Shown in pieces: positions 17,208 through 62,375 of a stretch of 64,000 nt of DNA (its first letter is position 1; each line of letters begins with the position of its first letter). A program made the position numbers and the translations under genes. The notes beneath the pieces were generated by a model, which saw nothing but the letters and a program-made list of their open reading frames with translations, was not told where the DNA came from and made no database searches. This stretch comes from a virus (taxonomy: Duplodnaviria > Heunggongvirae > Uroviricota > Caudoviricetes): the IMG/VR virus record IMGVR_UViG_3300031758_000005; one strand, written 5' to 3'.

Positions 17208-20200
17208 ATGAGAATAACAGATCTACCACAATTATTTACAGCGTCTATCAATGATTTGCTGTACGTAATTGATGTAAACGATACAAGTAGCTTTTTTTCT
17301 GGGTCAAGCAAAAGAATAGACATTAGTACTCTTTTTTCTTCACCTAGCATAACCGCTAGTTTTGCTAAAAAAGCATTAAGTGCTAGTTATGCTAAAACAG
17401 CCAGTTACGCACTAGTATCAAGATCATCCAGTTACGCATTTAATGCTACAACCGCAAGTTATGCATTAAATGCTGGTACCAAAATATACACAGGCAGTGT
17501 ATATCCAATAACCGCAAGTTGGGCTATCAATGGTGGCACCAAATTGTATACCGGAAGTACATACCCAATAACTTCCAGTTGGGCACTCAATGGTGGCACA
17601 AAGTTATATACTTCCAGTACATATCCAATAACCGCAAGTTGGGCCATAACCGCGAGTTACGCTTTAAATCAAACCACCAGCGGTACATCAGGCACTTCTG
17701 GCACCGCAGGTAGTAGCGGAACAAGTGGTACCAGTGGCACAAGTGGTACCAGTGGCACCAGTGGAACAAATGGCACCAGTGGATCAAGTGGGTCAAGTGG
17801 ATCAAGTGGTACATCTGCAACCGCTGGTACTAGTGGTTTAACAGGATCAAGTGGTACGAGTGGTACAAGCGGCAGTGATGGTACCAGTGGGTCAAGCGGT
17901 AGCAGTGGCAGCAGTGGTACCAGCGGTATAGAAGGTGGTAGATTGTTTACCGTAACAAGTTCTGGATTTAATTATAATATCGCTGGTTACACTGGATCAT
18001 TTCCTACCATTACGGTGGTAAGGGGACAATTATATTACTTTGATGTAAGCGGTGTATCTGCGTCACATCCATTTGCCTTGAGATTGTCAAGTGGCAATAC
18101 TAGTGCTGTACCTGGCACCACAAATAATGATCCTGTAAATGGATTGGCAAATACAAACACTTTAATAATTTACAGAGTACCTGAAGACGCTCCTTCTAGT
18201 ATAGTTTACCAATGTGTTGTACATTCAGGTATGATTGGAACTATAAATATAGTAAACCAATATGGTACATCTGGTACATCTGGTACTGCGGGAACAGCCG
18301 GTAGTAGCGGAAGTAGTGGCACAAGTGGTAGTGATGGTACCAGTGGGTCTAGCGGTAGTAGTGGAGAATCTGGTACAAGTGGTAGCAGTGGAAGTAGTGG
18401 AAGTAGTGGTAGTAGCGGATCTAGCGGTAGTAGCGGTAGTAGTGGAAGTAGTGGTACAAGCGGCAGTGATGGTACCAGTGGATCCAGCGGTAGCAGTGGC
18501 AGTAGTGGAACAAGTGGTATAGAAGGTGGTGGTTTATTTACAGTAACTAGTTCTGGTTTTAATTATAACATTGCTGGTTATTCTGGTACTTTTCCTACTA
18601 TTACGGTAGTGAGAGGTCAGTTGTATTATTTTAATGTAAGCGGCGTATCTGCATCACATCCATTTGCATTGAGATTATCAAGTGGTAATACTGCAACAGT
18701 ACCAGGAACAACAAACAATGATCCTGTAAATGGATTGGCAAATACAAACACTTTAATAATTTACAGAGTACCCAATGATGCGCCTAATAGTATAGTTTAT
18801 CAGTGCGTTATACATTCAGGTATGATTGGAACTATAAACATAGTTGATCAATATGGTACATCCGGTACATCTGGTACTACGGGAACAGCTGGATCAAGTG
18901 GTAGCAGTGGTAGCAGTGGTAGCAGTGGTGAAAATGGTACAAGTGGTACTAGCGGTAGTACTGGTACAAGTGGTAGCAGTGGATCCAGTGGAAGTAGTGG
19001 AACAAGTGGTACGTCCGCAACTGCTGGTACAAGTGGTGAAACTTTTGGTACCAGTGGTACTAGCGGCAGTACAGGAACAAGTGGTACTAGTGGAGAATCT
19101 GGTACAAGTGGTAGCAGTGGATCCAGTGGAAGTAGTGGAACAAGCGGCACCAATGGTACATCTGCAACTGCTGGTACAAGCGGTGAAACTTTTGGTACCA
19201 GTGGTACCAGTGGATTGACGGGAACTAGCGGTACATCTGGTAGTACCGGAACAAGTGGTAGCAGTGGTAGCAGTGGAGAATCAGGTACCAGTGGAAGTAG
19301 TGGACAATCTGGTACTAGTGGCAGTAGTGGTAATACTGGTAGCAGCGGTAGTAGTGGTGTGAGTGGTACTACGTTGTATACTGGTAGCACATATCCTATA
19401 ACGGCTAGTAGAGCTGTTACTGCAAGTTATGCGTTGAATGCTACTGGTGGTGGAAGTTCTTTGTACACTGGTAGTACTTATCCGATAACTGCAAGTTGGG
19501 CACTGTATGTAGTGAATGGAACTAGTGGTACTGCTTCATTGAATTTAACTAACATTACACGTAGTGGCAATGGAAGTGGTTCTGTTTATAATTTAAATAA
19601 CAATACATTTACCGGCACAAATTCTTTGGTATTTCTGGGTGGTATTACTTTAAATAATAATATTGATTATACACTGAGTTCTGGAATATTAACATTTACT
19701 TCCCCACCACTATTAAATGAAGAAATACACGTTGTTAAATTTACAGGTGGTGGTGCAAATGGTACTAGTGGTACAAGTGGCATAGTTGGTATTGCCAATG
19801 CGCAAACATTCACAAGCAATGGTATTGCTACACAATACGCTCTTACACAAAGTGTAGTACGTAGTTATGACATTATAGTTGCTATTAATGGTGTGGTTCA
19901 AAATTACAGTTCCAGTTATACTGTAACTGGATCTACACTTACATTAGCTTCTGCACCACCATTAAATTCTAAAGTGGATGTCAGATTTTTAGGTAGCGCA
20001 GCTGGCGGTGGAGGAGGCGGTAGCGGCACAAACGGTACAAGTGGATCAAGTGGATCAAGTGGTACTAGCGGCACAAGTGGGTCAAGTGGAGAATCAGGTA
20101 CAAGTGGATCAAGTGGAGAATCAGGTACAAGTGGGTCAAGTGGGTCAAGTGGAGAATCAGGTACAAGTGGGTCAAGTGGTACTAGCGGCACAAGTGGATC

Positions 20201-20831
20201 AAGTGGAGAATCAGGTACAAGTGGGTCAAGTGGTACTAGCGGCACAAGTGGGTCAAGTGGAGAATCAGGTACAAGTGGATCAAGTGGGTCAAGTATATCT
20301 TTGCAAACTGGCAGTTTATATCCCATAACGGCAAGTAGAGCTATTACTGCAAGTTACGCATTGAACGCAACTGGTGGTGGAAGTTCTTTGTATACTGGTA
20401 GTACTTATCCCATAACAGCGAGTAGAGCTATTACTGCAAGTTACGCATTGAATGCTTCTGGTGGAGGTGGTAGTACATTACAAACTGGTAGCACTTATCC
20501 CATTACTAGTAGTTATGCTAATTTTGCAATAAATATTGCTGGTAGTGTTACTACATTGGTGGGTACTGATATAAATTGGAACAATCCAACTTATGAAAAG
20601 AATATTTCAGTTGCAGAGACATATACATTTTCAAATGTTACAACTGGCAGTTCAATTGTGGTTATATTGAATAATACAGGCAGCAACAGTATATTATCTA
20701 CATTTCCAAATAGTGTAAAATGGGCCAATTCATTGCCACCCACAAATATACTATCAAATGCAACTTCAATTTATACATTTGTAAGAACCAAATTATATGT
20801 TCTGGGTAGTTCTACTGAAAACTATCAATAA
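17208..20831 (+). CDS. Collagen-like repeat fiber protein (1207 aa) with a duplicated globular insert domain and repeated TGSxYPITASWA motifs
   Basis: Long G-[TS]-S triplet arrays. A ~590-nt module is present twice (17920-18290 and 18510-18890). The N-terminus MRITDLPQ...VIDVNDT resembles the N-termini of the 23657-27020 paralogs. Confidence 0.7.
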   Translation: MRITDLPQLFTASINDLLYVIDVNDTSSFFSGSSKRIDISTLFSSPSITASFAKKALSASYAKTASYALVSRSSSYAFNATTASYALNAGTKIYTGSVYPITASWAINGGTKLYTGSTYPITSSWALNGGTKLYTSSTYPITASWAITASYALNQTTSGTSGTSGTAGSSGTSGTSGTSGTSGTSGTNGTSGSSGSSGSSGTSATAGTSGLTGSSGTSGTSGSDGTSGSSGSSGSSGTSGIEGGRLFTVTSSGFNYNIAGYTGSFPTITVVRGQLYYFDVSGVSASHPFALRLSSGNTSAVPGTTNNDPVNGLANTNTLIIYRVPEDAPSSIVYQCVVHSGMIGTINIVNQYGTSGTSGTAGTAGSSGSSGTSGSDGTSGSSGSSGESGTSGSSGSSGSSGSSGSSGSSGSSGSSGTSGSDGTSGSSGSSGSSGTSGIEGGGLFTVTSSGFNYNIAGYSGTFPTITVVRGQLYYFNVSGVSASHPFALRLSSGNTATVPGTTNNDPVNGLANTNTLIIYRVPNDAPNSIVYQCVIHSGMIGTINIVDQYGTSGTSGTTGTAGSSGSSGSSGSSGENGTSGTSGSTGTSGSSGSSGSSGTSGTSATAGTSGETFGTSGTSGSTGTSGTSGESGTSGSSGSSGSSGTSGTNGTSATAGTSGETFGTSGTSGLTGTSGTSGSTGTSGSSGSSGESGTSGSSGQSGTSGSSGNTGSSGSSGVSGTTLYTGSTYPITASRAVTASYALNATGGGSSLYTGSTYPITASWALYVVNGTSGTASLNLTNITRSGNGSGSVYNLNNNTFTGTNSLVFLGGITLNNNIDYTLSSGILTFTSPPLLNEEIHVVKFTGGGANGTSGTSGIVGIANAQTFTSNGIATQYALTQSVVRSYDIIVAINGVVQNYSSSYTVTGSTLTLASAPPLNSKVDVRFLGSAAGGGGGGSGTNGTSGSSGSSGTSGTSGSSGESGTSGSSGESGTSGSSGSSGESGTSGSSGTSGTSGSSGESGTSGSSGTSGTSGSSGESGTSGSSGSSISLQTGSLYPITASRAITASYALNATGGGSSLYTGSTYPITASRAITASYALNASGGGGSTLQTGSTYPITSSYANFAINIAGSVTTLVGTDINWNNPTYEKNISVAETYTFSNVTTGSSIVVILNNTGSNSILSTFPNSVKWANSLPPTNILSNATSIYTFVRTKLYVLGSSTENYQ
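17470..17650 (+). repeat. Three tandem 60-nt coding repeats (GGTKLYTGSTYPITASWAxN)
   Basis: Direct inspection, inside gene 17208..20831. Confidence 0.8.
17920..18890 (+). repeat. Tandem duplication of a ~590-nt coding module (globular insert domain plus flanking collagen-like triplets)
   Basis: ggtatagaaggtggt...ataaa(t/c)atagt...caatatggtacatc(t/c)ggtacatctggtact(g/a)cg occurs twice. Confidence 0.8.
20040..20290 (+). repeat. Near-perfect 54-nt tandem repeats encoding SGESGTSGSSGTSGTSGS collagen-like triplets
   Basis: agtggagaatcaggtacaagtgggtcaagtggtactagcggcacaagtgg units. Confidence 0.75.
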
Positions 20832-22207: not shown

Positions 22208-22268
22208 AAAATAAAGTTTATATCATAACATTCTTTATATTTATAAACAGAAATCGTAATTTTATAAA

Positions 22269-23656: not shown

Positions 23657-24835
23657 ATGCCACAACCAATATCACAATTAGCAGACTATACAACAATAAC
23701 AGGATCCGCATTTGTTCCTATTGTTGATGTTAATGAAACAGTATCATCAAAAAACAAAAAGATCAGTGTAGATGATTTGAGAAAAACTTTCTTTAAAAGT
23801 GGAGTTCTTCTTTCATCTTCTTTCACAGAACATACGCCGGGTTTTTATTACTTTGGTGACAATCGTGATGGTCGTCTCAATTTAACAGGTTCAATTGCCA
23901 CTGTTAGAACTTTTGTAAGCAGATCGTTCGCAAGTACACAAGATGGCGCACCTGTCGTTAAAAACTTTAGTTCGTTGTTCATTTCCAGAAGTGTGGTGGT
24001 GAGTCCAACCAATAGATGTAGAGGATTGTTGATATTTGTGGATGGTGATGCAACCATCAGTGGTAGCATAAGTATGACTGCTAGAGGAGCGAGGTTTACA
24101 GGAAGCGACGCTTCCTTCACAACAATAAATCCGCCATATTTGGGTGATTACTGGAGCACGCAGTTGTTTCCGTCTGCGAGTTATTTGAGCAGAGTATTTG
24201 CGGTTGGAGCGGCTGGTGGTACGGCTGGCCCCGCTCCATCTAGCGTTGGTGGCGTTGGTGTCACTGGTATACTGGGAAGAAGTGGAGGTGGAGGAGGCGG
24301 CGGTGGACAAGCAGCCGCGGGTGGAGCGGGATCAACAGGCACATCTTTTAGTGGTGGATCTGGTGGTGGAGGAGGTGGGCCATCTCCAGGAGCAAATGGC
24401 TTTGCATTTGGTGGTCAAGGTGGTCCAACGCTTGGTAGCGGCGGCGCCGGATCAGGCAATCCAGGTGGAATAACGCCAGCTCAGCCGCCCAGTAGTCCAC
24501 TCCCAGTCTCAGCACCAAGTGGTACTGGTGGATTGTTAATATTAATAGTGAAAGGTAATTTAAGAATTGGACCAAATGGATCAATTACGGCTAATGGAAT
24601 CAGTGGTGGTAATGGACTTGCTGGTTTTGGAACTGCTGGTGGCGGTGGAAGTGGAGGTGGAGTGTTATATATTTATTATGGTGGGTCTTTAACAAATAAT
24701 GGCACTGTAACTGCTAATGGTGGGTCAGGTGGTTTAACTGGTACACCCTCGCCAGCTCTTAATCAAGGCGGAGCAGGAGGAGCTGGAACTGCGATAATAT
24801 CAAAATTAAACGTTGCATTTCCAGTAGCAAACTAA
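23657..24835 (+). CDS. Glycine-rich beta-helix-like fiber paralog 1
   Basis: N-terminus ISQLADYTTITGSAFVPIVDVNE. Middle NRCRGLLIFVDGDATISGS. C-terminal Gly runs and LLILIVKGNLRIGPNGSITANG. Confidence 0.65.
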   Translation: MPQPISQLADYTTITGSAFVPIVDVNETVSSKNKKISVDDLRKTFFKSGVLLSSSFTEHTPGFYYFGDNRDGRLNLTGSIATVRTFVSRSFASTQDGAPVVKNFSSLFISRSVVVSPTNRCRGLLIFVDGDATISGSISMTARGARFTGSDASFTTINPPYLGDYWSTQLFPSASYLSRVFAVGAAGGTAGPAPSSVGGVGVTGILGRSGGGGGGGGQAAAGGAGSTGTSFSGGSGGGGGGPSPGANGFAFGGQGGPTLGSGGAGSGNPGGITPAQPPSSPLPVSAPSGTGGLLILIVKGNLRIGPNGSITANGISGGNGLAGFGTAGGGGSGGGVLYIYYGGSLTNNGTVTANGGSGGLTGTPSPALNQGGAGGAGTAIISKLNVAFPVAN

Positions 24836-24847
24836 ATAATTATTTAT

Positions 24848-25972
24848 ATGCCTACAAGAATATCAGATTTACCCGAATATACAACAATAACATCATCAGC
24901 ATTTGTGCCTATTGTTGATGTTAATGAATTGGTAGCTTCAAAAAATAAAAAAATAAGAATTGACGATTTAAGAAAATATTTTTTCACAGGCACAACCACC
25001 AGCAGTTCTTTCACAGAACATACCCCAGGCCTTTATTACTTTGGCGATAACAGCGACGGACCTCTTAACTTAACAGGCTCTATCGCCACCGTTAGAACTT
25101 TTGTAAGCAGATCCTTCGCAAGCACTCAAGATGGCGCGCCTGTCGTTAAGAACTTCAGTTCATTGTTCATTTCCAGAAGCGTAGTAGTGAGTCCAACAAA
25201 TAGATGTAGAGGAATGTTGATATTTGTGGATGGTGATGCAACTATTAGTGGTAGTCTACGAATGAACGGCAGAGGTGCTTCCGCGGTTGGAGCTGATGCG
25301 TCTTTTACAACAATAAATCCGCCATATTTGGGTGATTACTGGAGCACGCAATTGTTTCCTTCGTCGAGTTATTTGAGCAGAGTATTTGCTGTAGGCGCAG
25401 CAGGTTCAGGCTATGGAACTGATGGGGTAACTGGTGTAAATGGAAGATCTGGTGGCGGAGGAGGTGGGTCTAGTTATGGTGCACCGACAGCAGGTTCAGG
25501 CGCAACCGGCACATCGTTTAGTGGTGGTTCTGGTGGAGGTGGATCCCAGGTTAACGTCATCGCCGGAGGAAGTGCGAGTGGAAATGGTGGCGCAGGGGGA
25601 AATGGCGCAACCGGCCCCGGCGGTACCGGCGGCGGTGGAGCTGGAAATCCAGGCGGCACTCCAAATGGAGGTGTAGGAACAGGTGGATTATTAATATTAA
25701 TTGTACGAGGTAATTTAAGAATTGGGCCAAATGGCAGTATAACATCAAATGGTAGCAATGGCGGAAATGCAAGTAGTCCAACGCAGGGCGGAGGAGGAGG
25801 TGGAAGTGGCGGTGGGGTGTTATATGTATATTATGGCGGTACACTAACAAACAATGGCACTGTAACCGCATCTGGAGGCACCCGTGGCACGGGTGGAAAC
25901 GTTGCTGGAAACGGTGGAGCTGGAACTGCTATATTATCAAAATTAAACGTTGCATTTCCAGCAGCAAACTAA
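24848..25972 (+). CDS. Glycine-rich fiber paralog 2
   Basis: Close paralog of 23657..24835: the N-terminal ~200 aa are nearly identical. Confidence 0.65.
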   Translation: MPTRISDLPEYTTITSSAFVPIVDVNELVASKNKKIRIDDLRKYFFTGTTTSSSFTEHTPGLYYFGDNSDGPLNLTGSIATVRTFVSRSFASTQDGAPVVKNFSSLFISRSVVVSPTNRCRGMLIFVDGDATISGSLRMNGRGASAVGADASFTTINPPYLGDYWSTQLFPSSSYLSRVFAVGAAGSGYGTDGVTGVNGRSGGGGGGSSYGAPTAGSGATGTSFSGGSGGGGSQVNVIAGGSASGNGGAGGNGATGPGGTGGGGAGNPGGTPNGGVGTGGLLILIVRGNLRIGPNGSITSNGSNGGNASSPTQGGGGGGSGGGVLYVYYGGTLTNNGTVTASGGTRGTGGNVAGNGGAGTAILSKLNVAFPAAN

Positions 25973-25985
25973 TATTTAATAATAT

Positions 25986-27020
25986 ATGGCAAATAAACGT
26001 ATAACAGATTTAACCGAAGCAACTTTTGTAAGTGCGAGTAATTTTTATGTTGTGTATGATCCTACAGCTACACAAGATCAAAATGCTGATGGTTATACTG
26101 ATTTTAATAAAAAAGTAAAACTAAAAAATATTTGTACCCAAGTAAGTCAATCAGCCATCACTTGGTTTGGTACAGGCGCAAATGGTGCTTTAAATACAAC
26201 AGGTAGTGTTACTTTTACCACTACAAATGATCAAGAAGTATTTGTGAGAAATTATACATCTCTCACAGTAAATGCTGGTCATACAATGACTGTAAGCAAC
26301 AGATGTAGAGGATTGTTGATATATGTTGGGGGAGATTGTACTATAAATGGTACAGTAACAATGTCAGGCAAAGGAGCCAACTCGGTTGGAACAGCTGCTC
26401 ATTATGTATATCAATCTAAAAATTACTATGGCAACTTTATTCCCCAATATCAATTTAACAGCGTAAAATTATATGGATCTGGTAGTGCCGGTGGACCCGC
26501 AAATACTGCTGGTAGATCCGCAGGCGAAGGTTATACAGGTGGTGGAGGCGGTGGAGGTGGAACTGGTGGTGCTGGTGCAGCAGGCACCAGTTGGAGTGGT
26601 GGATCAGGTGGAGGTGGTGGACCATCTGCAACTGCAGGCACTATAAATGGTGGTGCTGGTGGTAATGGTACAGCTGCGAATACTGGTGGTGGTGCTGGTA
26701 ATGGTGGTGGCAGTGCTGGTCCAGGTGGTATAGCTGGTGGTACTGGTACAGGTGGTTTGATTATTTTTGTGGTAAAAGGTACATTTACATTGGGAAATAC
26801 AGGTGCAATAACTGCAAATGGTGTTGCGGGTGGAAATGGTAGTGCAGGAGGAGGAGGAGGTAGTGGAGGTGGAAGAATAGTTGTATTATACAATCAAAAT
26901 TATATAAATAATGGTGGTACTATTACTGCAAATGGTGGAGCTGGTGGAGGAACTGCTCCAACTGCTGGTGGCAGTGGGGGAGCCGGTAGCATAACAATAA
27001 GAGAAATAGGAATTTGGTAA
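25986..27020 (+). CDS. Glycine-rich fiber paralog 3
   Basis: N-terminus RITDLTEATF. Middle NRCRGLLIYVGGDCTINGTVTMSGKGA. Gly-rich C-terminus. Confidence 0.65.
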   Translation: MANKRITDLTEATFVSASNFYVVYDPTATQDQNADGYTDFNKKVKLKNICTQVSQSAITWFGTGANGALNTTGSVTFTTTNDQEVFVRNYTSLTVNAGHTMTVSNRCRGLLIYVGGDCTINGTVTMSGKGANSVGTAAHYVYQSKNYYGNFIPQYQFNSVKLYGSGSAGGPANTAGRSAGEGYTGGGGGGGGTGGAGAAGTSWSGGSGGGGGPSATAGTINGGAGGNGTAANTGGGAGNGGGSAGPGGIAGGTGTGGLIIFVVKGTFTLGNTGAITANGVAGGNGSAGGGGGSGGGRIVVLYNQNYINNGGTITANGGAGGGTAPTAGGSGGAGSITIREIGIW

Positions 27021-27037
27021 AATATTTATAAAGTTAT

Positions 27038-28279
27038 ATGGCAATACCATCACAAGCAATATCTCAAATGACTACCTTGGTAGGTAGTAATCGTAACGAC
27101 AATTGTTTATTTACATTGTATAATGCATTAATATCGTCCAGTGTCAATCAAAATTTAAAAGCAAGAATAAGTACCCACGAACAATTTTATAGCAACAACA
27201 ATACCGTCATAAATCAAGGTACTTATAATAATTACTTTGGAACAGGCAAAGATGGTAGTGTAACCATAAGTAGCAGTGCGCAAATAAGTTCATCCACATC
27301 TCCAGCTGGATTAAATAATATTAGTCGTGAATTTGGCGACCCAGTTATAAAAAACTTTCAAAATTTAACCATCAACAGTGGTGTATTGTTCAGCCCATTA
27401 AGAGCTTGTAGAGGAATGATAATATATTGTACTGGCAATTTAACAGTAAACGGCACTTTGAGTATGACTGGTAAAGGTGGAGGCGTTGGTTCTAAAGTCG
27501 CGTCTCCTATTGGATTTGCTACAAGCACCGATTCAAGATATGATTTGGTGGATGCTACATTATATTTTAACAATTTTTCATCAAGCACTGCAGGTGGAAG
27601 AGGAATACCTACACATTGGAATTGGGCGCCTAGTGGTAGTATTTGGTTTAATAATTATAAGATTAGAGTGCCATTGAGTGGGAGTGCTGCTGGAGGAGGA
27701 CCAAATAATGGTGGTAGTGCGGGAATATTTTGTTGTGGAGGTGGAGGTGGGGGTGGTCAATCAAACCCTGGCGCGGTAAGGGCAGGAGGATCCGGTGGTA
27801 GCGGAACTATATTTCTAGGAGGAGGGGGAGGAGGAGGAGGATCATACGGCGGCGGCGCCGGCACCAACGGCATATTTGAAGCTGGTGGAATTGGCGGATT
27901 TGGGCCTAATCCAGGATTAGGCCCAAATGGTTCTGGCGGAGGTGGAGCTGGAACACCTGCTGGACCTGGCTCCGGAGGCGCTGGTAATACAGGCGTTGGT
28001 GGATTAATTATATTAATAGTACGTGGTAATATTACAATAAACGGCACAGTTTCTAGTGGTGGCGCAAATGGAGGTAATGGAACTACTGGAGGTGCTGGAG
28101 CTGCTGGCGGTGGCGGTGGAAGTGGCGGTGGTAGGATAATAATTATTTACGGCGGTACATATAGTAATGTTGGTACCATTGTGGTTAATGGTGGCTCCGG
28201 CGGCGCCGGTGGCCCCGGCGCACTCACTGGTGGTGCTGGTGGTGCGGGTTCTATAACTATAAGAAGGGTAAATGTTTAA
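27038..28279 (+). CDS. Glycine-rich fiber paralog 4
   Basis: ACRGMIIYCTGNLTVNGTLSMTGKGGGVGSKVASPIGFATSTDSRYDLVD. Gly-rich C-terminus. Confidence 0.65.
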   Translation: MAIPSQAISQMTTLVGSNRNDNCLFTLYNALISSSVNQNLKARISTHEQFYSNNNTVINQGTYNNYFGTGKDGSVTISSSAQISSSTSPAGLNNISREFGDPVIKNFQNLTINSGVLFSPLRACRGMIIYCTGNLTVNGTLSMTGKGGGVGSKVASPIGFATSTDSRYDLVDATLYFNNFSSSTAGGRGIPTHWNWAPSGSIWFNNYKIRVPLSGSAAGGGPNNGGSAGIFCCGGGGGGGQSNPGAVRAGGSGGSGTIFLGGGGGGGGSYGGGAGTNGIFEAGGIGGFGPNPGLGPNGSGGGGAGTPAGPGSGGAGNTGVGGLIILIVRGNITINGTVSSGGANGGNGTTGGAGAAGGGGGSGGGRIIIIYGGTYSNVGTIVVNGGSGGAGGPGALTGGAGGAGSITIRRVNV

Positions 28280-28285
28280 AATTTT

Positions 28286-29509
28286 ATGGCTACACAAATA
28301 TCAAGTTTAACAACACTAGTTAATGGCGTAAACAGTTATGATTGTTTTTTGCCATTGGTTGATCCAACATTAGCATTAGATTCTCGTAATGTTAAAATTA
28401 GAATAAGTACCCACAATGAAATGTTCAGCAACAACTTTGCTGTAGCTAGTTTGAGCAGTTATGCAAACTATTTTGGAACAGGCAAAGATGGTAGCTTAAC
28501 CATAAGCAGCAGTGCTCAAGTAAGCGCTTCATTGAATAATATTAGTCGTGAATTTGGCGACCCAGTTATAAAAAACTTTCAAAATTTAACCATCGGCAGT
28601 GGTATATTATTTAGTCCACTAAGAGCTTGTAGAGGTATGATAATATATTGCACAGGCGATTTAACGGTGAATGGTACCATAAGTATGACTGGTAAAGGTG
28701 GAGGCGTTGGTTCTAAAGTCGCGTCTCCTATTGGATTTGCTACAAGCACCGATTCAAGATATGATTTGGTGGATGGCACATTATATTTCAATAATTTTTC
28801 ATCAAGTACAGCGGGTGGTTATGGAATACCTACGCATTGGAATTGGGCGCCTAGTGGAAGTGTTTGGTTTAGGAATTATAAGATACGAGTGCCATTGAGC
28901 GGAAGTGTTGACGGTGGCAATGGTGCATCGACCGCTGCGGCTTCGGGTAATGCGGGATCAGCTGGTATATTTAGTTGTGGTGGCGGCGGTGGTGGTGGTT
29001 CCGGAGAATCGCAGTATGGTACTTTTGGATCAGGAGCTTCTGGAGGCAGAGGAACTATATTTTCTGGTGGTGGCGGTGGAGGAGGCGGCGGCGGTGGATG
29101 TTGTGGTGGCAATGTACCTGGTACATCTGGTATTCTTGAAAGAGGAGGAGCAGGGGGAGCTTCTCCTAACGGCCCAGCGGGTGGAGGAGCGGGAACTACA
29201 ACTACTGGTGGAAACGGTACATTAGGTGTTGGGGGATTATTAATATTAATTGTACGTGGAAATATAATAATTAATGGAACTATTAGTTCAAATGGAGCTA
29301 GTGGTGGAAACGGAGTACGTATTAGTAAAGGATCTGGTGGAGGAGGTGGAAGTGGCGGTGGTCGAATAATTATAACTTATGGCGGTACATACACTAATGC
29401 GGGTTCCGTTGTTGCAAATGGTGGATCAGGTGGTTCTGCCAGCTCTGGCGGTGGTCCAGGTGCGTCTGGTGGTGCTGGATCTATAACTACAAGAAAGATA
29501 CATATATGA
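28286..29509 (+). CDS. Glycine-rich fiber paralog 5
   Basis: Close paralog of 27038..28279. Confidence 0.65.
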   Translation: MATQISSLTTLVNGVNSYDCFLPLVDPTLALDSRNVKIRISTHNEMFSNNFAVASLSSYANYFGTGKDGSLTISSSAQVSASLNNISREFGDPVIKNFQNLTIGSGILFSPLRACRGMIIYCTGDLTVNGTISMTGKGGGVGSKVASPIGFATSTDSRYDLVDGTLYFNNFSSSTAGGYGIPTHWNWAPSGSVWFRNYKIRVPLSGSVDGGNGASTAAASGNAGSAGIFSCGGGGGGGSGESQYGTFGSGASGGRGTIFSGGGGGGGGGGGCCGGNVPGTSGILERGGAGGASPNGPAGGGAGTTTTGGNGTLGVGGLLILIVRGNIIINGTISSNGASGGNGVRISKGSGGGGGSGGGRIIITYGGTYTNAGSVVANGGSGGSASSGGGPGASGGAGSITTRKIHI

Positions 29510-29874
29510 GAGATAAAATTATAATATATAGCGTTCATGACAAAACGAGCAGAGAATTTGTTGCTGCATATGGTAACAGAAACGACGTTACTGTGTTGGA
29601 AGATGACGGATATAGTGTTCGAATAAAATATCCATACATTAGTGCTTTTCCAACTGTAATAATAAATACACCTTCATATACGGAGTCTTTTATTGTAGAT
29701 GAAGGTGGAGGCGGTGCATTTGTAAATTTAGATTCTATTGGAAATGAAACAATAGTGCCAGAAGATGTAGAATATATTAGATCTCCTAAAGATTGGAATG
29801 AAGTACAACAACGTATTGATTATTGGGAAAACAAAGTGCCCAATTGGAAACAAACTGATACTAGATATTTATGA
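29506..29874 (+). CDS. Hypothetical protein, copy A of a duplicated gene flanking the modification cassette
   Basis: N-terminus MRDKIIIYSVHDKTSREFVAAYGNRNDVTVLEDDG and C-terminus IDYWENKVPNWKQTDTRY are shared with 31140..31469. Confidence 0.5.
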   Translation: MRDKIIIYSVHDKTSREFVAAYGNRNDVTVLEDDGYSVRIKYPYISAFPTVIINTPSYTESFIVDEGGGGAFVNLDSIGNETIVPEDVEYIRSPKDWNEVQQRIDYWENKVPNWKQTDTRYL

Positions 29875-30545
29875 CAAGATATACCATTTTAGGCGAACGT
29901 AGATCAGGTACTAATTTTTTGCAACATTGTATAACTGACAACTTCAATTTACAATTAGATTGGTTAAAAGGATGGAAACATTTTTTTGGATGTAATGGTT
30001 ATGAAGATAAATTGAAGAATAACCAAGACGTAATATACTTGTGTATTGTTAGAAATCCAATTGATTATTTTGTATCATTTTATAATTCTAAATTGATGCA
30101 AAGTGAAGAACGTACAAAAGATATTGAAACGTTTTTATTATCAGAATTTTATTCAGTTTATAACTATAAAAACGGATTAATTGACGTATCAGACGACTAT
30201 AATTTTAAAAATAACAATAAGCGTTACAAAAACATATTTGAAATGCGATCCGTTAAATGTAAATATTTGTTAGATGATATGCCTAATTTAGTGAGTAAAT
30301 ATCATTTTATAAGATATGAAGATTTAAAACATAATACTAATACTGTATTGAATACAATTAGTGATAAATTTAATCTTATAAAAAAGAATGACAATTATTT
30401 AATAAATACAAATTATGTCGGTGTAAAAATTAATGGAGGTGTTATAACAGAAAATTATCAAGTTGAAGATAAAATAAAACAGATAATATATAACAATATA
30501 GATTTATCGACAGAACATAGAATGGGTTATTTGACCGATATATGA
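29871..30545 (+). CDS. Sulfotransferase-family protein (PAPS-dependent)
   Basis: The 5'-phosphosulfate-binding P-loop-like motif RRSGTNF resembles PKSGTTW. The 3'-phosphate-binding motif IVRNPIDYFVSFY resembles RNxKDxxVSxY of cytosolic sulfotransferases. Confidence 0.55.
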   Translation: MTRYTILGERRSGTNFLQHCITDNFNLQLDWLKGWKHFFGCNGYEDKLKNNQDVIYLCIVRNPIDYFVSFYNSKLMQSEERTKDIETFLLSEFYSVYNYKNGLIDVSDDYNFKNNNKRYKNIFEMRSVKCKYLLDDMPNLVSKYHFIRYEDLKHNTNTVLNTISDKFNLIKKNDNYLINTNYVGVKINGGVITENYQVEDKIKQIIYNNIDLSTEHRMGYLTDI

Positions 30546-31105
30546 AATTATACTCATATGATATAACTGAATTTAATTTTAAAGAGCAATTACAAACTGT
30601 TTTGAACGTGTCTAATTTAGATGATTTGGGGGAAAACAAAGATAAAGAGAAACTGTATTCTGAGTATATTTTGGGTAAACAGTTTTTAGATATGTATGTA
30701 CAGTTTATAAAAAAATATGTTAGAAATTTGTACGATGACGTTATAGCATATCAAACTAAACCAGTATGTAGATTGGTATATAAAAATAAATTAAATATGC
30801 ATAAACTTCATAAAGACAAGTGGTATAGAAGAAATACTATTTATAGTGATATGCAGATAGATAATATTTTTTTACCATTTACAAATGCTTTTGATACAAA
30901 CACAATTTGGACTGAATCAGTTGAAGACAGTCACGATTTTTTTCCGATAAATTGTGATTACGGACAATTTGTACACTGGGATGGTTGCAATTTACTTCAC
31001 GGTAATAAATTTAATAATACTAACAAAACAAGACTGAGTATAGATTTTAGAGTTTATAAATACAAAAATTTATTACACCCAGAGTATTCTTTATTGAATT
31101 TTTAG
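30542..31105 (+). CDS. 2OG-Fe(II) oxygenase-like protein (PhyH-like)
   Basis: HKD (HxD) around aa 89, distal His in LLHGN about 64 aa later, followed by TRLSIDFR (R-x-S 2OG-binding motif). Confidence 0.45.
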   Translation: MKLYSYDITEFNFKEQLQTVLNVSNLDDLGENKDKEKLYSEYILGKQFLDMYVQFIKKYVRNLYDDVIAYQTKPVCRLVYKNKLNMHKLHKDKWYRRNTIYSDMQIDNIFLPFTNAFDTNTIWTESVEDSHDFFPINCDYGQFVHWDGCNLLHGNKFNNTNKTRLSIDFRVYKYKNLLHPEYSLLNF

Positions 31106-31139
31106 AAGAAAAACTATTTATTAGTTACACAAAGAGATT

Positions 31140-31469
31140 ATGAGAGATACAATTATAATACATAATATTCATGACAAAGCGAGTAGAGAATTTGTTGCTG
31201 CATATGGTAACAGAAATGATGTTACTGTATTGGAAGACGACGGACTAAATGTACGTTTAGCGTTTCCTTATATCAGCGCTTTTCCTACTGTTGTAATACC
31301 CACACCATCTTATGAAAATACAGATGAAAATGGAACAGTAACCCAAATCGAAGGATCTATAGAATATCTAAGAGCACCTGAAGATTGGAATACAGTACAA
31401 ACACGAATTGATTATTGGGAAAACAAAGTACCCAATTGGAAACAAACTGATAGTAGATACAAACAATAA
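31140..31469 (+). CDS. Hypothetical protein, copy B of the duplicated flanking gene
   Basis: Paralog of 29506..29874 with high nt identity over the first ~180 nt and the last ~60 nt. Confidence 0.5.
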   Translation: MRDTIIIHNIHDKASREFVAAYGNRNDVTVLEDDGLNVRLAFPYISAFPTVVIPTPSYENTDENGTVTQIEGSIEYLRAPEDWNTVQTRIDYWENKVPNWKQTDSRYKQ

Positions 31470-31474
31470 TTAAA

Positions 31475-31849
31475 ATGAATAATCAACCAACCGTAACTTG
31501 GAAAGTAACAAATTTAGATTGTTATCCTACATATCAACAAAACACCGATGTTGTATTTACAGTACATTGGGATTGTTTGGGGCAAATTGTTGTATCCACT
31601 GGCAGTTTGAGTGGATCTACATACAACAGTAGATTATATGGTACCACTGGTGTACAATACCACAGTGGATCTTCATTTATACCATACAATCAATTAACTC
31701 AAGATGATGTGCTTGGATGGACATTTGATAGTATGGGAACTGGCAGCAAGTATAATATTGAAAAAGGAGCTGTATCAAGTTTATACACTCAGATAAATCC
31801 ACCTGTAGTACAACCACCTTTGCCTTGGGTAACAACTGGTTCTATTTGA
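31475..31849 (+). CDS. Hypothetical protein (124 aa)
   Basis: ORF. Confidence 0.45.
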   Translation: MNNQPTVTWKVTNLDCYPTYQQNTDVVFTVHWDCLGQIVVSTGSLSGSTYNSRLYGTTGVQYHSGSSFIPYNQLTQDDVLGWTFDSMGTGSKYNIEKGAVSSLYTQINPPVVQPPLPWVTTGSI

Positions 31850-31897
31850 TTTATAATAAGTACTGTTGTGTAAATAAAAACTATATATTAAAAAGTT

Positions 31898-32077
31898 ATG
31901 GAAGAAAACAAACAAATAAATTTAGCTGATTTGACGCTCGTAGAATTAAAAGCAATATCTTATGATGAAATTGTCAAATTGAATTTGGCACAAAACAACT
32001 TAAGAGTTTTAAATCAAGAATTATATAACCGTCAACAAAAAGGCGTAGAAGGTGCTTCGCCAGTAAATCAAAATTAA
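31898..32077 (+). CDS. Small hypothetical protein (59 aa) absent from the ORF track because it is under 60 aa. Tandem paralog of 32087..32281.
   Basis: MEENKQINLADLTLVELKAISYDEIVKLNLAQNNLRVLNQELYNRQQ aligns with MEKKISDLTVIELKSLAYDELAKIELCQNNLRALNQEITNRLQ. Confidence 0.35.
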   Translation: MEENKQINLADLTLVELKAISYDEIVKLNLAQNNLRVLNQELYNRQQKGVEGASPVNQN

Positions 32078-32086
32078 AATAGTTTT

Positions 32087-32281
32087 ATGGAAAAAAAGAT
32101 ATCTGACTTAACCGTGATTGAATTAAAAAGTTTAGCATATGATGAATTGGCTAAAATTGAATTGTGCCAAAATAATCTTCGTGCATTGAATCAAGAAATT
32201 ACAAATAGATTGCAACCACAGTCAAATCAATTGAGTGGGAATTTTGATAGCCCCCCCACCGCTACAACCGAAACCGTTTAA
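32087..32281 (+). CDS. Small hypothetical protein (64 aa), last gene of the + block
   Basis: ORF. Its stop lies inside the palindrome CCGTTTAAACGG shared with the convergent gene. Confidence 0.4.
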   Translation: MEKKISDLTVIELKSLAYDELAKIELCQNNLRALNQEITNRLQPQSNQLSGNFDSPPTATTETV

Positions 32282-32541
32282 ACGGGATCACCATAGATAT
32301 TGAAGCCTTTGGGTGGTTGTGGTACCACTTCTTCTTCAATTGTCTTAATAGCATACAATTTGCTATCTAGTGGGGCTAGTCTATATTCACACTTGATCTT
32401 GGTTTCTTTGAAATAAGATTCAAGCGCTTCAGTGATACTTGGATGAATGATTTTACGGTTATCATTCACAAGAGTCCATCTATCGCCAGGTGGTACTCTA
32501 GTAGCAATCAATTCATTGTGTTCTGTAATTTTTGTAGCCAT
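32278..32541 (-). CDS. Hypothetical protein (87 aa), last gene of the − block
   Basis: ORF. Confidence 0.45.
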   Translation of the reverse strand: MATKITEHNELIATRVPPGDRWTLVNDNRKIIHPSITEALESYFKETKIKCEYRLAPLDSKLYAIKTIEEEVVPQPPKGFNIYGDPV

Positions 32542-32547
32542 AATATA

Positions 32548-32841
32548 TTATCGGGGTTTGACAAAGAATATTTTGTGCATTCCTGTCATATAAAAAGTAT
32601 TCAAATCCATATTCAACGCTTTACATTCCAATTCTCCCGGCCAAAATCCTTTCCAAGAAGCAAATTGTTTATCGTGGTTAGTACATTCACAACTTATTTT
32701 TTGACCACCACATTCACTACATCTTTCAATGTCACACTTTTTCTTGTGTATTTTACCCGCAACAACTTTGCAACTAAAACAATTGTCTAGTTCCACTTTC
32801 TGACACACTGGAGTTTGTTTCTTTTTCATAATTAACAACAA
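32548..32841 (-). CDS. Cys-rich small protein (putative zinc-binding)
   Basis: CQKVELDNCFSCK...CDIERCSECGGQKISCEC Cys cluster. Confidence 0.45.
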   Translation of the reverse strand: MLLIMKKKQTPVCQKVELDNCFSCKVVAGKIHKKKCDIERCSECGGQKISCECTNHDKQFASWKGFWPGELECKALNMDLNTFYMTGMHKIFFVKPR

Positions 32842-33044
32842 TGTCCTTTCTTGTCATCTGCAGTAAAATTATTTAGATTATAGTTACTTGAACGTATATC
32901 CCGCAATCCATACAATTCTCTGTACATATCATATACGATATGATCCAAATCTTTTACTGTCATTGGAATGCTTTTGGTTTTATCTACTTCTTGCATTTTC
33001 AAACAATGTTTTTTGATGATAGAATCAATTTGTTCTTTCATCAA
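32832..33044 (-). CDS. Hypothetical protein (70 aa)
   Basis: ORF with overlapping start/stop to its neighbours. Confidence 0.4.
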   Translation of the reverse strand: MMKEQIDSIIKKHCLKMQEVDKTKSIPMTVKDLDHIVYDMYRELYGLRDIRSSNYNLNNFTADDKKGHCC

Positions 33045-57343: not shown

Positions 57344-57835
57344 TTATTTAGTATACATTATAACTTTGTGTAGGTCAAATTCTTTTACAACTTCTTTATG
57401 TGTAAACGTATGTTCAAACTCAGGCATAAATGTATCACCATCATAATTACCATTTATATGCGTAACATAGAACTCCTTAATGTATGGTAACAACTTAATA
57501 TAAGTTTTAGCACCACCAGCAACAATCAAATAGTCTTTTCTAAATTGACTATATGATTCAAAATCTGTCATTGTAATCAGTTGACCAGTCATAGAGTTAT
57601 TGTTTACCAGATATTGATTTGGATTTGCAGCCATTATTTTGTCTTCTTTGACTAGTACAAGACATTCTCTATTTTTTAGAAGTGGTAGTGTATCAAATGT
57701 ATTTTTACCTACCACAATAGTATTACCAACGGTAAATTCTTTAAAGTGCTTAAAATCCTCTTTTATAGATGGCCAGGGTAATCCACCATTTTTGCCTATA
57801 ACCCTATTTTGTGCCATTGCAAGTATTGCTTTCAT
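57344..57835 (-). CDS. Dihydrofolate reductase
   Basis: MKAILAMAQNRVIGKNGGLPW, VVGKNTF, LIVAGGAKTY, THINGNYDGDTFMP DHFR signature. Its stop abuts the thyA start. Confidence 0.85.
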   Translation of the reverse strand: MKAILAMAQNRVIGKNGGLPWPSIKEDFKHFKEFTVGNTIVVGKNTFDTLPLLKNRECLVLVKEDKIMAANPNQYLVNNNSMTGQLITMTDFESYSQFRKDYLIVAGGAKTYIKLLPYIKEFYVTHINGNYDGDTFMPEFEHTFTHKEVVKEFDLHKVIMYTK

Positions 57836-58269
57836 TGTATATAATTTAAAATTAGTTTGATTGATTGTTCAATAGAATTTTTATCGGTGTCAATATCAAG
57901 ATAGTTATTTAATGGCGGTTCATAATAATCCACCATCTTACCCTCCCTTAATCTGTTACTATGTAGATATACTTCTTTTACAATATGTGTAGAATCATTT
58001 TTTAATGAGTCTCTTAAATTTCTGAACGGAGATACTAACGACATTATTGTGTAATTATATAATTTGTTGCTAGTTTTTGCCATTTCTATAGCTAATCTCA
58101 CATTACTTTTTCTGCCACTAATACTATAGTCTTTATTGTTACTAATACTACGTAACGTATCCCCATCAATAGTTACAGCTGTACGATTTGTTTTTGTTAA
58201 AAGTGTTTCTAATGTTAACGCCAATGTGGTTTTACCACTATTTGGTTGACCTGTTAATATAATAATCAT
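57832..58269 (-). CDS. Adenylylsulfate (APS) kinase-like P-loop kinase
   Basis: P-loop ILTGQPNSGKTTLA. IDGDTLRS resembles LDGDNVR. GRKSNVRLAIEMAK resembles DRxENIRRxAEVAK. LVSPFRNLRD resembles ISPYRxDRD. C-terminal YYEPPLNNYLDIDTD resembles YExPxxPELxLDT. Confidence 0.6.
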   Translation of the reverse strand: MIIILTGQPNSGKTTLALTLETLLTKTNRTAVTIDGDTLRSISNNKDYSISGRKSNVRLAIEMAKTSNKLYNYTIMSLVSPFRNLRDSLKNDSTHIVKEVYLHSNRLREGKMVDYYEPPLNNYLDIDTDKNSIEQSIKLILNYIQ

Positions 58270-58913
58270 AACAATATTTTCTTTTCGTGTTTTACCACAA
58301 CTTCAGGATGTACCCAAACATCAATACCACATTCTTTTACCAAATGACAAAAGCTTACGTCTTCCATTGTAAACTCCGTAACATTGCCAAATTGTTTCCA
58401 AATTGGTCTAAACCATGGATATTTCAATTTTTCAAATACACCCCGTTTTATAAGTATAAAGCCAAATCCAGTGTAGTCTACTGTAAATGGATCTTTGAAT
58501 TGTTTTAATTTATCGAAAGTTAAAAATTCAAAACTACCATACTTCTTAAAATGATCTTCGTTCCAATCTTTTACAGTAGCATAGTGCGTACCATCTTGCA
58601 TTAGATATAAACCAGATGCAATATCTTTCTTTATATTGAATAGCTTAATGAAGTCATCCACTTTGAACATATTGTCACTATCAATCCAAAGTATATAATC
58701 ATATTCGATTCTACCTTGCCATGGCTTTTGATTTTCTCCAGCATTAGAATCACCACCCAAACACATATTACGTACATAATAGATGTTACACGATTCTCTA
58801 CGAGAAAGTATAGGAGTTATTTTGTTATGAATACACCAATTATAAAATGGTATAAAACTATCTAACCACTGACCAGAGAAATTATTGCCGGGTAAACAAA
58901 TTATTAATCTCAT
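58266..58913 (-). CDS. GT-A fold glycosyltransferase (DxD-type)
   Basis: ILWIDSDNMF DxD-like motif. Paralogous pattern with the next gene (SGLY...GFxLxKxxVF). Confidence 0.55.
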   Translation of the reverse strand: MRLIICLPGNNFSGQWLDSFIPFYNWCIHNKITPILSRRESCNIYYVRNMCLGGDSNAGENQKPWQGRIEYDYILWIDSDNMFKVDDFIKLFNIKKDIASGLYLMQDGTHYATVKDWNEDHFKKYGSFEFLTFDKLKQFKDPFTVDYTGFGFILIKRGVFEKLKYPWFRPIWKQFGNVTEFTMEDVSFCHLVKECGIDVWVHPEVVVKHEKKILL

Positions 58914-59659
58914 GATTTAAAAAACAAATTGTTTTGTACAAACAAGTTACCTTTATAACCTTTCCAACCATAGTGAGTCAAGTTACAAGTGGTATCTACA
59001 TATATCTTACCACCGATACTTCTATAAAGATTACAAAAGCCATAATCTTCACTTTCATATTTCTTTGTCTTTTCATTTATTTTACATGGAAAGAAATCAT
59101 AGAACTTATCCCCATATCCCATATACCCATCAATGTCATTCTTATATGCTATATTAGGCATTTCTCTAGAAATTTGATTGAAGACACGTTTCTTGAATAA
59201 CATGAATCCAGTAGCAGCATAATTTACTTCTTCAATGTTTTTCATTTCGGGATTGAGTTTAATTTCTGTAGCAAAGTCGGTACATAGTTCTTCGTAATTA
59301 TCACCGATCATTTCTGGTCCTTGTTTTGCTAACAACTTTACTTTAGACGAATTAATATACTTCTTGGGATATAAACCTGAAATAACATCTTTATCAGCCT
59401 TTAACAATGAAAAGAAACTCTCGGGTTCAAATGATATATCACTATCAATGAACATCATATAATCACAATCCGGTTGATTTAGAAAATTAGCAGCTGCAGC
59501 ATTTCTAGCTCTAGCAATCAAACTTTCAAAGTATATACAATCCAAACTAAATGATATACCCCTACGTTGTCCCTCAAATATCAACTTCATCACACTAAAC
59601 ATAAAGTGTGATAGTACAGTATGATTATAACAAATCACAGGCAAATAAACTTTGGTCAT
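58910..59659 (-). CDS. GT-A fold glycosyltransferase (family-2-like)
   Basis: YMMFIDSDISFEPESF DxD motif. ATGFMLFKKRVF C-terminal motif. Confidence 0.55.
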   Translation of the reverse strand: MTKVYLPVICYNHTVLSHFMFSVMKLIFEGQRRGISFSLDCIYFESLIARARNAAAANFLNQPDCDYMMFIDSDISFEPESFFSLLKADKDVISGLYPKKYINSSKVKLLAKQGPEMIGDNYEELCTDFATEIKLNPEMKNIEEVNYAATGFMLFKKRVFNQISREMPNIAYKNDIDGYMGYGDKFYDFFPCKINEKTKKYESEDYGFCNLYRSIGGKIYVDTTCNLTHYGWKGYKGNLFVQNNLFFKS

Positions 59660-61349: not shown

Positions 61350-62375
61350 TCAACGTATATAATAAAGAACACGTTGCAAAACATATTGATAGGTATCAAA
61401 CCATTTTTTATTACCCAACTGATATTTTGGTATCTTACTCAAGTCAATTGATTCACTATAAATTGCATATGAACTTAAATAAGCATCATTACAATTGGCG
61501 TGTTGTTCATAATGATTAGGCATTGGTATCATCAACAATGGTTTGTTTTGATATATAGCTTCAGCACTTGTTTCAAATCCACCACTACATACTACTGCCT
61601 TACATACCTTCATCTTTTCTTGAAATAGTTTACCATCAAGATTAAATAATTTTAAATTTGGTAGTTCATCATATTGTTTGGTTAATTTGGTAAAACAATG
61701 AATATTGATATCTGGATATTTTTTTGCTTGATTAATCAATTGCGGTAACATATCTTCATTCATTAGATATACCAACACAAAGTCTTCTTGTTTGTGTGAT
61801 ACACTATAACTTTCACTTCTTAATATTGGAGGACTTGCAATCATAACATCATCATTAAATTCATAATAACTTAATGCTACGATTTTGGATCTGATACTAG
61901 TGATTTTGTTTATGATATTTAAAAATAACTTTTGTACAGGATATCCATTGATTCGTGGATATATAATAGAATCCATTGCGTATTGATGTCCAAAGCTTAC
62001 ATACTTTATGTTTTTAAAGAATAATGCGGTTAGACCTACCAGTGGTTCATAATAGTTGAATATAGCATCTGGTTTTTCTTTTTGGATGATGCTACAGATT
62101 TTAATGAATGATACAATTAAGCGTGGTAATTCAAATGTGTTGTTCAATATGGTTTTCCAGATAACAACTCTACCTACACTATCAAATACAAAATCAAATC
62201 CATCATAGTCTACTACGTTAAATTCGTCTGTAAAATATTTAGATAACCCCCGTTTCTTTTTAGCTGCAAAAGCAGTTGTTACCTCAATGCCTTGCGATTG
62301 TAGATATTGTTTGGTTGCTATAGCTTGTGTAATGTGTCCATTACCTTCAGTTTGAACTCCGAATAATATCTTCAT
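61350..62375 (-). CDS. GT-B fold glycosyltransferase (MurG / family-28-like)
   Basis: N-terminal GVQTEGNGH resembles GGTGGH. C-terminal CSGGFETSAEAIYQNKPLLMIPMPNHYEQHANCN resembles the MurG C-terminal donor-binding region. Confidence 0.6.
   Translation of the reverse strand: MKILFGVQTEGNGHITQAIATKQYLQSQGIEVTTAFAAKKKRGLSKYFTDEFNVVDYDGFDFVFDSVGRVVIWKTILNNTFELPRLIVSFIKICSIIQKEKPDAIFNYYEPLVGLTALFFKNIKYVSFGHQYAMDSIIYPRINGYPVQKLFLNIINKITSIRSKIVALSYYEFNDDVMIASPPILRSESYSVSHKQEDFVLVYLMNEDMLPQLINQAKKYPDINIHCFTKLTKQYDELPNLKLFNLDGKLFQEKMKVCKAVVCSGGFETSAEAIYQNKPLLMIPMPNHYEQHANCNDAYLSSYAIYSESIDLSKIPKYQLGNKKWFDTYQYVLQRVLYYIR

Follow-up and report, generated by a model that had tools for sequence, protein, structure and literature searches.

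A 1,634-bp accessory unit that pairs a predicted sulfotransferase with a predicted Fe(II)/2-oxoglutarate (2OG) oxygenase is inserted at the distal end of the array of fibre genes in an uncultured tailed phage. The phage is represented by a 64,000-nucleotide stretch of DNA, IMG/VR record IMGVR_UViG_3300031758_000005 (Caudoviricetes), which is called the window hereafter. The unit (29505..31138) carries three plus-strand genes, namely smallA (29506..29874, 122 aa), the sulfotransferase gene ST (29871..30545, 224 aa) and the oxygenase gene Ox (30542..31105, 187 aa), together with a 34-nt spacer that separates Ox from smallB (31140..31469, +), a 109-aa core copy of the small protein. It corresponds to exactly one period of the direct repeat formed by the paralogues smallA and smallB, and the downstream flank of the site is a gene for a DUF7936 protein (31475..31849, +; Pfam DUF7936, 74.3 bits) that is syntenic in relatives. 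An earlier reading of the sequence, made without database searches (the sequence-only reading), had called these four open reading frames (ORFs) on the plus strand and had regarded the cassette as a unit; both views are borne out, as the repeat period is present or absent as a block in relatives. Four-nucleotide ATGA overlaps join the preceding Gly-rich fibre-like gene (28286..29509) to smallA, smallA to ST, and ST to Ox, and a terminator scan revealed no terminator-like site near the cassette junctions. Tentatively, with a chance somewhat short of even, the cassette is read as an optional late cytoplasmic module that tailors a sugar, plausibly that of a fibre glycan.

The identity of ST is supported by profiles, motifs and fold alike. 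The protein passes the Pfam thresholds of Sulfotransfer_1 (27.1 bits, cutoff 22) and Sulfotransfer_2 (22.9 bits, cutoff 22), and it has the sulfotransferase fold and not that of a generic P-loop NTPase or kinase. Its two motifs, G8-E-R10-R-S-G13-T14-N and R61-N-P-I-D-Y-F-V-S69, are conserved in a family alignment of 51 sequences, where G8, R10 and R61 are invariant and G13, T14, P63 and S69 are at least 90% conserved. The family profile lines these motifs up with KSGTHW (5'-phosphosulfate) and RNPKDTAVS (3'-phosphate) of mouse SULT7A1. Candidate catalytic bases, proposed from the same alignment only, are the invariant K36-H37 and the conserved E9. By family, fold and motifs, the product of 29871-30545 is thus predicted to be a genuine sulfotransferase of the type that uses 3'-phosphoadenosine-5'-phosphosulfate (PAPS), as the sequence-only reading had proposed, and it belongs to a virus-specific clade. 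The family is essentially viral, found in large phages and in many giant-virus metagenome-assembled genomes; many loci of the latter kind (GVMAG) share 32-44% identity with ST and a Satyrvirus fragment shares 39%. Homologues at 45-49% identity cluster with genes for GT1, GT6, GT11, Gly_transf_sug, UDP-galactopyranose mutase, radical SAM and methyltransferase proteins. Across 61 distant viral loci the neighbours are mixed, with some epimerases, glycosyltransferases (GTs) and further sulfotransferases among them, and the cellular relatives, only 20-28% identical, are surrounded by GT2/GT4/GT92, Wzy, Wzz and sulfatase genes. This context gives moderate support to carbohydrate substrates for the family.

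The PhyH-like oxygenase proposed by the sequence-only reading was upheld by fold and motif residues, and not by a Pfam profile, since Ox has no Pfam match at E up to 1. The NCBIfam model TIGR04324, 'sporadic carbohydrate cluster 2OG-Fe(II) oxygenase', is matched with 32.2 bits against a cutoff of 150 and over the C-terminal part only. Residues H90, D92, H153, R164 and S166, which form the HxD...H...RxS pattern of the iron triad and the 2OG-binding arginine, are invariant in 49 sequences. The structural model (predicted local distance difference test score 87.9) has the double-stranded beta-helix fold, and its structure matches are Fe(II)/2OG oxygenases throughout. Membership of the Fe(II)/2OG PhyH-like clade is therefore assigned by predicted fold and motifs, not by curated profiles. 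The sugar-acting enzymes AviO1, EvdO, HygX and KanJ are among the fold matches, and Ox resembles PhyH enzymes that act on small molecules and sugars more than it does protein hydroxylases; protein prolyl and lysyl hydroxylases are not among its closest structural relatives. Nucleic-acid oxygenases match clearly worse than PhyH-type enzymes, which speaks against the view that the cassette acts on a nucleotide, a DNA base or another small molecule that belongs neither to a glycan nor to the fibres, for instance in DNA hypermodification together with the Mom, glycosyltransferase and kinase-like genes of the window. The cassette lies, moreover, in the structural module, on the opposite strand and 7-30 kb from those genes, and we know of no sulfated DNA modification; this view is accordingly held to be very improbable.

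Among the immediately adjacent proteins of Ox-family relatives outside the window lineage (53 non-redundant distant viral loci), 34 of 99 belong to Pfam GT2, and the other flanking proteins include DegT aminotransferases, epimerases, RmlD, RgpF, GDP-mannose dehydratase, TylF and GT11. A conserved 231-aa upstream partner is also GT2-like, so that the usual arrangement elsewhere is GT2-like / Ox / GT2. This is strong support for carbohydrate substrates of the family. The window holds no homologue of these GT2 partners, and the ST-Ox pairing is confined to its lineage. Compared with the GT2 - 2OG oxygenase - GT2 triads of other uncultured aquatic phages, which carry the same oxygenase family at 36-48% identity with an identical HxD...H...RxS pattern, the window enzyme is 24 residues shorter (187 aa against the common form of 211 aa, an internal 11-aa segment and the C-terminal tail being absent), has lost its GT partners and has gained a sulfotransferase partner.

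Because both families elsewhere sit in glycosyltransferase and sugar-nucleotide clusters, carbohydrate tailoring is the favoured function. The cassette would be read through from the preceding Gly-rich fibre-like gene via the overlapping stop and start codons, and as these couple it to that gene, its products most likely appear late, along with the fibres. By inspection, ST and Ox have no signal peptides or membrane segments; for this reason both would act in the cytoplasm of the infected cell, where PAPS, Fe(II) and 2OG are available. There, a sugar would be oxidised or hydroxylated by Ox and O-sulfated by ST, presumably in this order. The target is most likely a glycan that is attached, or is to be attached, to the Ser/Thr-rich collagen-like fibre or to the Gly-rich fibre proteins, and the outcome would be an optional, strain-variable anionic decoration of the virion. 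Three points weigh against this proposal: no glycosyltransferase is adjacent to the cassette, the presence of glycans on the fibres of the window phage is an assumption, and the fold of ST does not tell the class of its acceptor.

The optional character of the cassette is evident from the close relatives of the window, which are loci from lake metagenomes. Three states were found: Gly-Gly-smallA-ST-Ox-smallB in the window, L011, L017, L018 and L020; Gly-smallA-ST-Ox-Gly-smallB in L001-L005, L014, L021 and L022; and Gly-Gly-smallB, devoid of the cassette, in L013, L193, L195, L197 and L199. The genes smallA, ST and Ox are contiguous in all 13 cassette-bearing loci, window included. The single small gene of the cassette-less L195 and L013 aligns at the DNA level both to 29506-29868 and to 31132 onward, from which it follows that the cassette-less genomes differ by exactly one 1,634-bp period. 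All four genes are under purifying selection, with ratios of nonsynonymous to synonymous substitution rates of 0.1-0.35 (0.13-0.38 for smallA alone). Across the relatives, smallA and ST are only 66-75% identical, whereas the flanking smallB and DUF7936 genes are 94-95% identical in most of them (L001-L022). The identity of Ox ranges from 66% to 99% independently of that of ST, which indicates recombination inside the cassette. The sequence comparisons thus suggest a mosaic history of the cassette, different from that of its flanks. In L103:9356-10564 (IMGVR_UViG_3300042908_000899), and also in L022, ST and Ox are merged in one 402-aa ORF. The merger in L103 is due to the loss of 23 bp from an AT-rich run; over the aligned junction of about 200 bp, L103 and its sister contig L101 are otherwise identical. 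The merger was considered as Rosetta-stone evidence for a functional link and rejected, as the deletion removes the conserved C-terminus of ST including the invariant E215; the fused ORF probably reflects an error of assembly or an allele in decay.

A cassette that is polymorphic for its presence, at a hypervariable site closing a late operon, is also what would be expected if its function were 'moron'-like and host-directed, with the end of the fibre module serving as a permissive insertion site only. The enzymes would in that case modify a precursor of a host envelope polysaccharide, a sugar of the lipopolysaccharide or capsule, or another host metabolite, for example to mask the receptor and so keep progeny or competitors from adsorbing to infected cells. 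The faster divergence of the cassette genes (66-75%) than of the flanks (94-95%) fits this explanation, as do the Wzy/Wzz/GT polysaccharide loci that hold the remote cellular relatives of ST and the fact that phage sulfotransferases are commonly counted among auxiliary metabolic genes, with unclear function (PMC10580990, PMC8290583). However, the tight translational coupling to structural genes and the co-inheritance with a paralogue of a fibre partner suggest a role in the virion, and a cassette expressed late by a lytic phage has little time to remodel the cell surface. A host-directed role is hence considered rather unlikely.

The fibre partner in question is the small protein. The sequence-only reading had described the two bracketing genes as near-identical; they are homologous and constitute a genuine direct repeat with 1,634-bp spacing, but their identity is 64% at the protein level and 78-81% at the DNA level (BLASTP E 5e-56). 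SmallA is the first cassette gene in every case and directly precedes ST in 13 of 13 cassette-bearing loci, window included. SmallB occurs whether or not a relative has the cassette, and in every case DUF7936 or its replacement lies downstream of it; its conservation falls from 94-95% in most close relatives to 71% in L017/L018 and to 58% in L199. No homologue of smallA was found in Pfam, PHROG or the PDB, and narrow and broad small-protein profile searches were likewise empty. A fold of the glutaredoxin/NrdH type without the CxxC motif was considered for the small protein and dropped: hhalign probabilities were below 1% for the narrow profile against NrdH and Grx3 and for the broad profile against NrdH, the NrdH and Grx3 sequences used being approximate. 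An exhaustive profile search recovered a wider family of proteins of about 95-150 aa related to smallA and smallB. In six unrelated viral contigs (L253-L258, GC 31-53%), members of this family are encoded downstream of a Gly-rich protein (17-25% Gly) homologous to the window paralogues at 23657 and 25986. The module sits around position 6000 in the other contigs and at 1186-2574 in L258; the small gene follows the Gly-rich gene directly in five of the six contigs, and in L255 a 589-aa fibre-like gene lies in between. As the same order recurs in six unrelated contigs, a Gly-rich protein followed by a small protein is a conserved two-gene module across diverse phages. The bracketing small gene is accordingly a partner of the fibre-like gene, with smallA as the copy that travels with the enzymes.

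The fibre-like gene whose stop codon overlaps the start of smallA (28286..29509, +) encodes a Gly-rich paralogue of 407 aa with 25% Gly and poly-G. It is preceded by four further paralogues of 392, 374, 344 and 413 aa (23657..28279, +) with 22-26% Gly and poly-G runs of up to 8. The sequence-only reading had placed the cassette directly after a block of collagen-like G-X-Y genes. This placement fails, since the five adjacent genes (23657-29509; 22-26% Gly, repeat families D4-D17) have poly-G runs, lack G-X-Y periodicity and contain no run of G-X-Y longer than 8 consecutive triplets; three of the five give PHROG matches, all of them weak and to phrog_13336. The only true collagen-like gene in the window lies at 17208..20831 (+) and encodes a collagen-like tail-fibre protein of the type (G-T/S-S)n with 146 G-X-Y triplets and PHROG matches to tail fibres and to a collagen-like minor tail protein. 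Its triplets are almost only G-T-S and G-S-S (X mainly T, S or E, Y mainly S) and contain 0 Pro and 0 Lys, an unusually hydroxyl-rich, proline-free repeat with roughly 250 Ser/Thr hydroxyls. Thus, there is no substrate in these repeats for a collagen-type hydroxylase, and the rationale of collagen Pro/Lys hydroxylation offered by the sequence-only reading is not sustained. Hydroxylation of collagen by Ox was rejected on three grounds: the repeats contain no Pro or Lys, the adjacent genes are not of the G-X-Y type, and prolyl 4-hydroxylases and lysyl hydroxylases are weaker fold matches. The prolyl-4-hydroxylase of Paramecium bursaria chlorella virus 1 (PBCV-1) and the lysyl hydroxylase/glycosyltransferase L230 of mimivirus, in particular, match Ox clearly less well than PhyH-clade enzymes. 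Judged from its composition, the collagen-like protein is a candidate substrate of O-linked modification, to which it would be better suited than to Pro/Lys hydroxylation. Overall, the observations of the sequence-only reading are for the most part confirmed, and its interpretation is partly supported, being right on the enzymes and on the unit character of the cassette and wrong on collagen.

In an amended form of the sequence-only reading, fibre proteins could be imagined as direct targets, with ST O-sulfating Ser, Thr or Tyr and Ox hydroxylating, e.g., Asn, Asp or Pro, either in the (G-T/S-S)n fibre or in the Gly-rich paralogue just upstream of the cassette, and with smallA possibly serving as an adaptor. 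Against such protein modification stand the 0 Pro/Lys of the collagen-like repeats, the resemblance of Ox to small-molecule and sugar PhyH enzymes, the association of both enzyme families with glycan clusters elsewhere, and the observation that relatives with fibres up to 97% identical to those of the window (L195 and L197) manage without the cassette. Direct modification of the fibres is consequently regarded as improbable. As a separate observation, the Gly-rich array at 23657-29509 (also 20840-23636) shows poly-G of up to 11 residues and DNA blocks that are 65-93% identical. The number and order of the tandem paralogues (344-413 aa) differ among close relatives, which marks the array as a recombination hotspot.

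Virus-encoded sulfation has been proposed before in a different setting, which is conceptually the nearest precedent. The fibril glycosylation clusters of Megavirinae (Moumouvirus australiensis, Cotonvirus japonicus) include a sulfotransferase, Ma461, and a bifunctional sulfate adenylyltransferase (SAT)/adenosine 5'-phosphosulfate (APS) kinase, Ma457 (PMC10117803; PMC11625862), and sulfation of giant-virus glycans is suggested or predicted and unvalidated (PMC10117803). Like these viruses, the window phage encodes a sulfotransferase, an APS-kinase-family enzyme and glycan- or fibre-related genes, and in both cases the roles are predicted from genes. In Megavirinae, which are nucleocytoplasmic viruses, the sulfotransferase, kinase, sugar-nucleotide enzymes and GTs form one cluster, whereas the tailed phage of the window pairs ST with a 2OG oxygenase and a small protein in a fibre operon, has no adjacent GT, and encodes, 27 kb away from ST, a lid-truncated kinase that is also present where ST is absent, so that neither clustering nor strict co-inheritance is seen. 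Sulfotransferases have also been annotated, with 'unclear' function, in cyanophages and OM43-related metagenomic phage genomes (P-SSM7, S-SCSM1, S-SRM01; PMC10580990). They are PAPS-type enzymes like ST, from which they differ in subfamily (Foldseek E 4e-3 or weaker, 14% identity). A further parallel is offered by mycobacteriophages, in which, as reportedly described by Freeman et al. 2023 (a study cited in PMC11256854), virions are glycosylated by phage glycosyltransferases encoded beside structural genes. Strain-variable phage enzymes next to structural genes are common to both; the mycobacteriophage enzymes are glycosyltransferases with a demonstrated effect on virion proteins, whereas in the window no GT is adjacent and sulfation and oxidation are predicted from genes. 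The cassette is thus set apart from known systems in that ST is paired with an oxygenase, no GTs are adjacent, the site lies within a fibre operon, and the whole behaves as a 1.6-kb indel.

Although both enzymes come from well-known superfamilies and the phage is uncultured, the locus provides a clean handle on the role of a phage sulfotransferase, as it is compact, under purifying selection and fused to a fibre operon, it pairs ST with an oxygenase whose relatives are flanked by glycosyltransferases, and phages with nearly identical fibres naturally differ in whether they have the cassette. If the virion is the target, phages would decorate their surfaces enzymatically by sulfation and oxidation as well as by glycosylation, which would bear on adsorption, on host range and on how the particles behave in water; if the enzymes are directed at the host instead, a new kind of receptor or metabolite remodelling would be at hand. 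A bolder proposal, to which only a small probability is attached, is that of a sulfated virion, with sulfate on a glycan or directly on Ser/Thr of the (G-T/S-S)n collagen-like or the Gly-rich fibres, giving polyanionic, mucin- or heparan-like fibres that are toggled by gain and loss of 1.6 kb, smallA directing the enzymes to one paralogue. Were this the case, the particle would be the first sulfated one among bacteriophages, and a phage sulfotransferase would for the first time have a function assigned to it.

The supply of PAPS brings in the APS-kinase homolog at 57832..58269 (-), which the sequence-only reading had tied to the cassette. The family assignment holds: the 145-aa protein scores 59.8 bits with Pfam APS_kinase, carries the motifs GQPNSGKTT, IDGDTLR, GRKSNVR and LVSPFR (P-loop, DGDxxR, RxxN and (I/V)SP), and has APS kinases as 18 of 18 PDB matches (best E 7.5e-13). 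Its lid is shortened, about 30 residues being absent compared with 8a8h, and it reaches 68.3 bits with NCBIfam apsK against a cutoff of 138.7, below the level of a full-length member. The link to the cassette was overstated, for the gene lies 27 kb from ST on the opposite strand and also occurs without it. Both genes share a contig in the window and in 3300042908_000899. Contigs 3300028569_000044 and 3300032330_001647 (54 and 51 kb) carry the kinase-like gene at 94% and 88% identity, and collection scans returned no ST, Ox or smallB on them; one of the two shows the canonical site without smallB, ST and Ox. As the cassette-less contigs end before the kinase region, only the converse case, a kinase without the cassette, is addressed by these data. 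In most related loci, the kinase-like gene adjoins the gene for dihydrofolate reductase (DHFR). Judged from its motifs, the protein may supply PAPS, and its gene is not a dedicated part of the cassette. No ATP sulfurylase or PAPS reductase was found among about 40 larger window ORFs scanned, small ORFs not all being included.

Two ORFs of 215 and 249 aa that overlap the kinase gene (58266..59659, -) have only sub-threshold glycosyltransferase-like matches (Glycos_transf_2, E 0.0099; Anp1, E 7.8e-5, below the cutoff). They have no NCBIfam match, and the 249-aa ORF has no meaningful PDB match, the 215-aa ORF not having been searched there. The kinase-like gene and the adjacent 215-aa ORF (57344-59659, -) are variable: L207 and L215 run from DHFR directly to the 249-aa ORF, and L206 has both GT-like ORFs and lacks the kinase. 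The only confident glycosyltransferase in the window is a GT-B enzyme of the MJ1255/VC2487 family at 61350..62375 (-; Pfam Glyco_trans_1_3, 96.1 bits; TIGR00661, 104.7 bits, cutoff 195.9).

The window is a low-GC segment (about 33%) of an uncultured myovirus-like, T4-like freshwater phage. Its plus-strand structural block (65 to ~32,300) encodes large baseplate-wedge or tail-fibre-like proteins, the collagen-like fibre and the Gly-rich paralogues, and is followed by a minus-strand block with DNA ligase, RNA ligases, Mom, ThyA, DHFR and related genes. No close relative was found among 50,697 deposited phage genomes, where neither a megablast of 27000-33000 nor a tblastn of ST and Ox gave a match; the window DNA ligase is less than 50% identical to that of Caulobacter phage Cr30 and others. 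No Rfam families or tRNAs were found in the window, the T4-type late promoter TATAAATA is not enriched (19 observed versus 13.8 expected), and sigma-70 and terminator scans gave no informative signal. Inside the minus-strand block, a Mom-family protein (38053-38760, +; Pfam 150.6 bits) is kept in most close relatives and suggests DNA base modification in the lineage. The thymidylate synthase (56191-57342, -) is 383 aa long and exceeds the Pfam model by an insertion of about 117 residues, and a GIY-YIG/I-TevI-like homing-endonuclease ORF (55533-56213, +) abuts its gene on the opposite strand; in several relatives, ThyA is swapped for a version only 27-29% identical. Finally, a 166-aa protein at 59834-60334 (-) with a type IV pilin N-terminal methylation motif (Pfam N_methyl, 24 bits) is 82-97% conserved in relatives and resembles a phage-encoded pilin-like protein.

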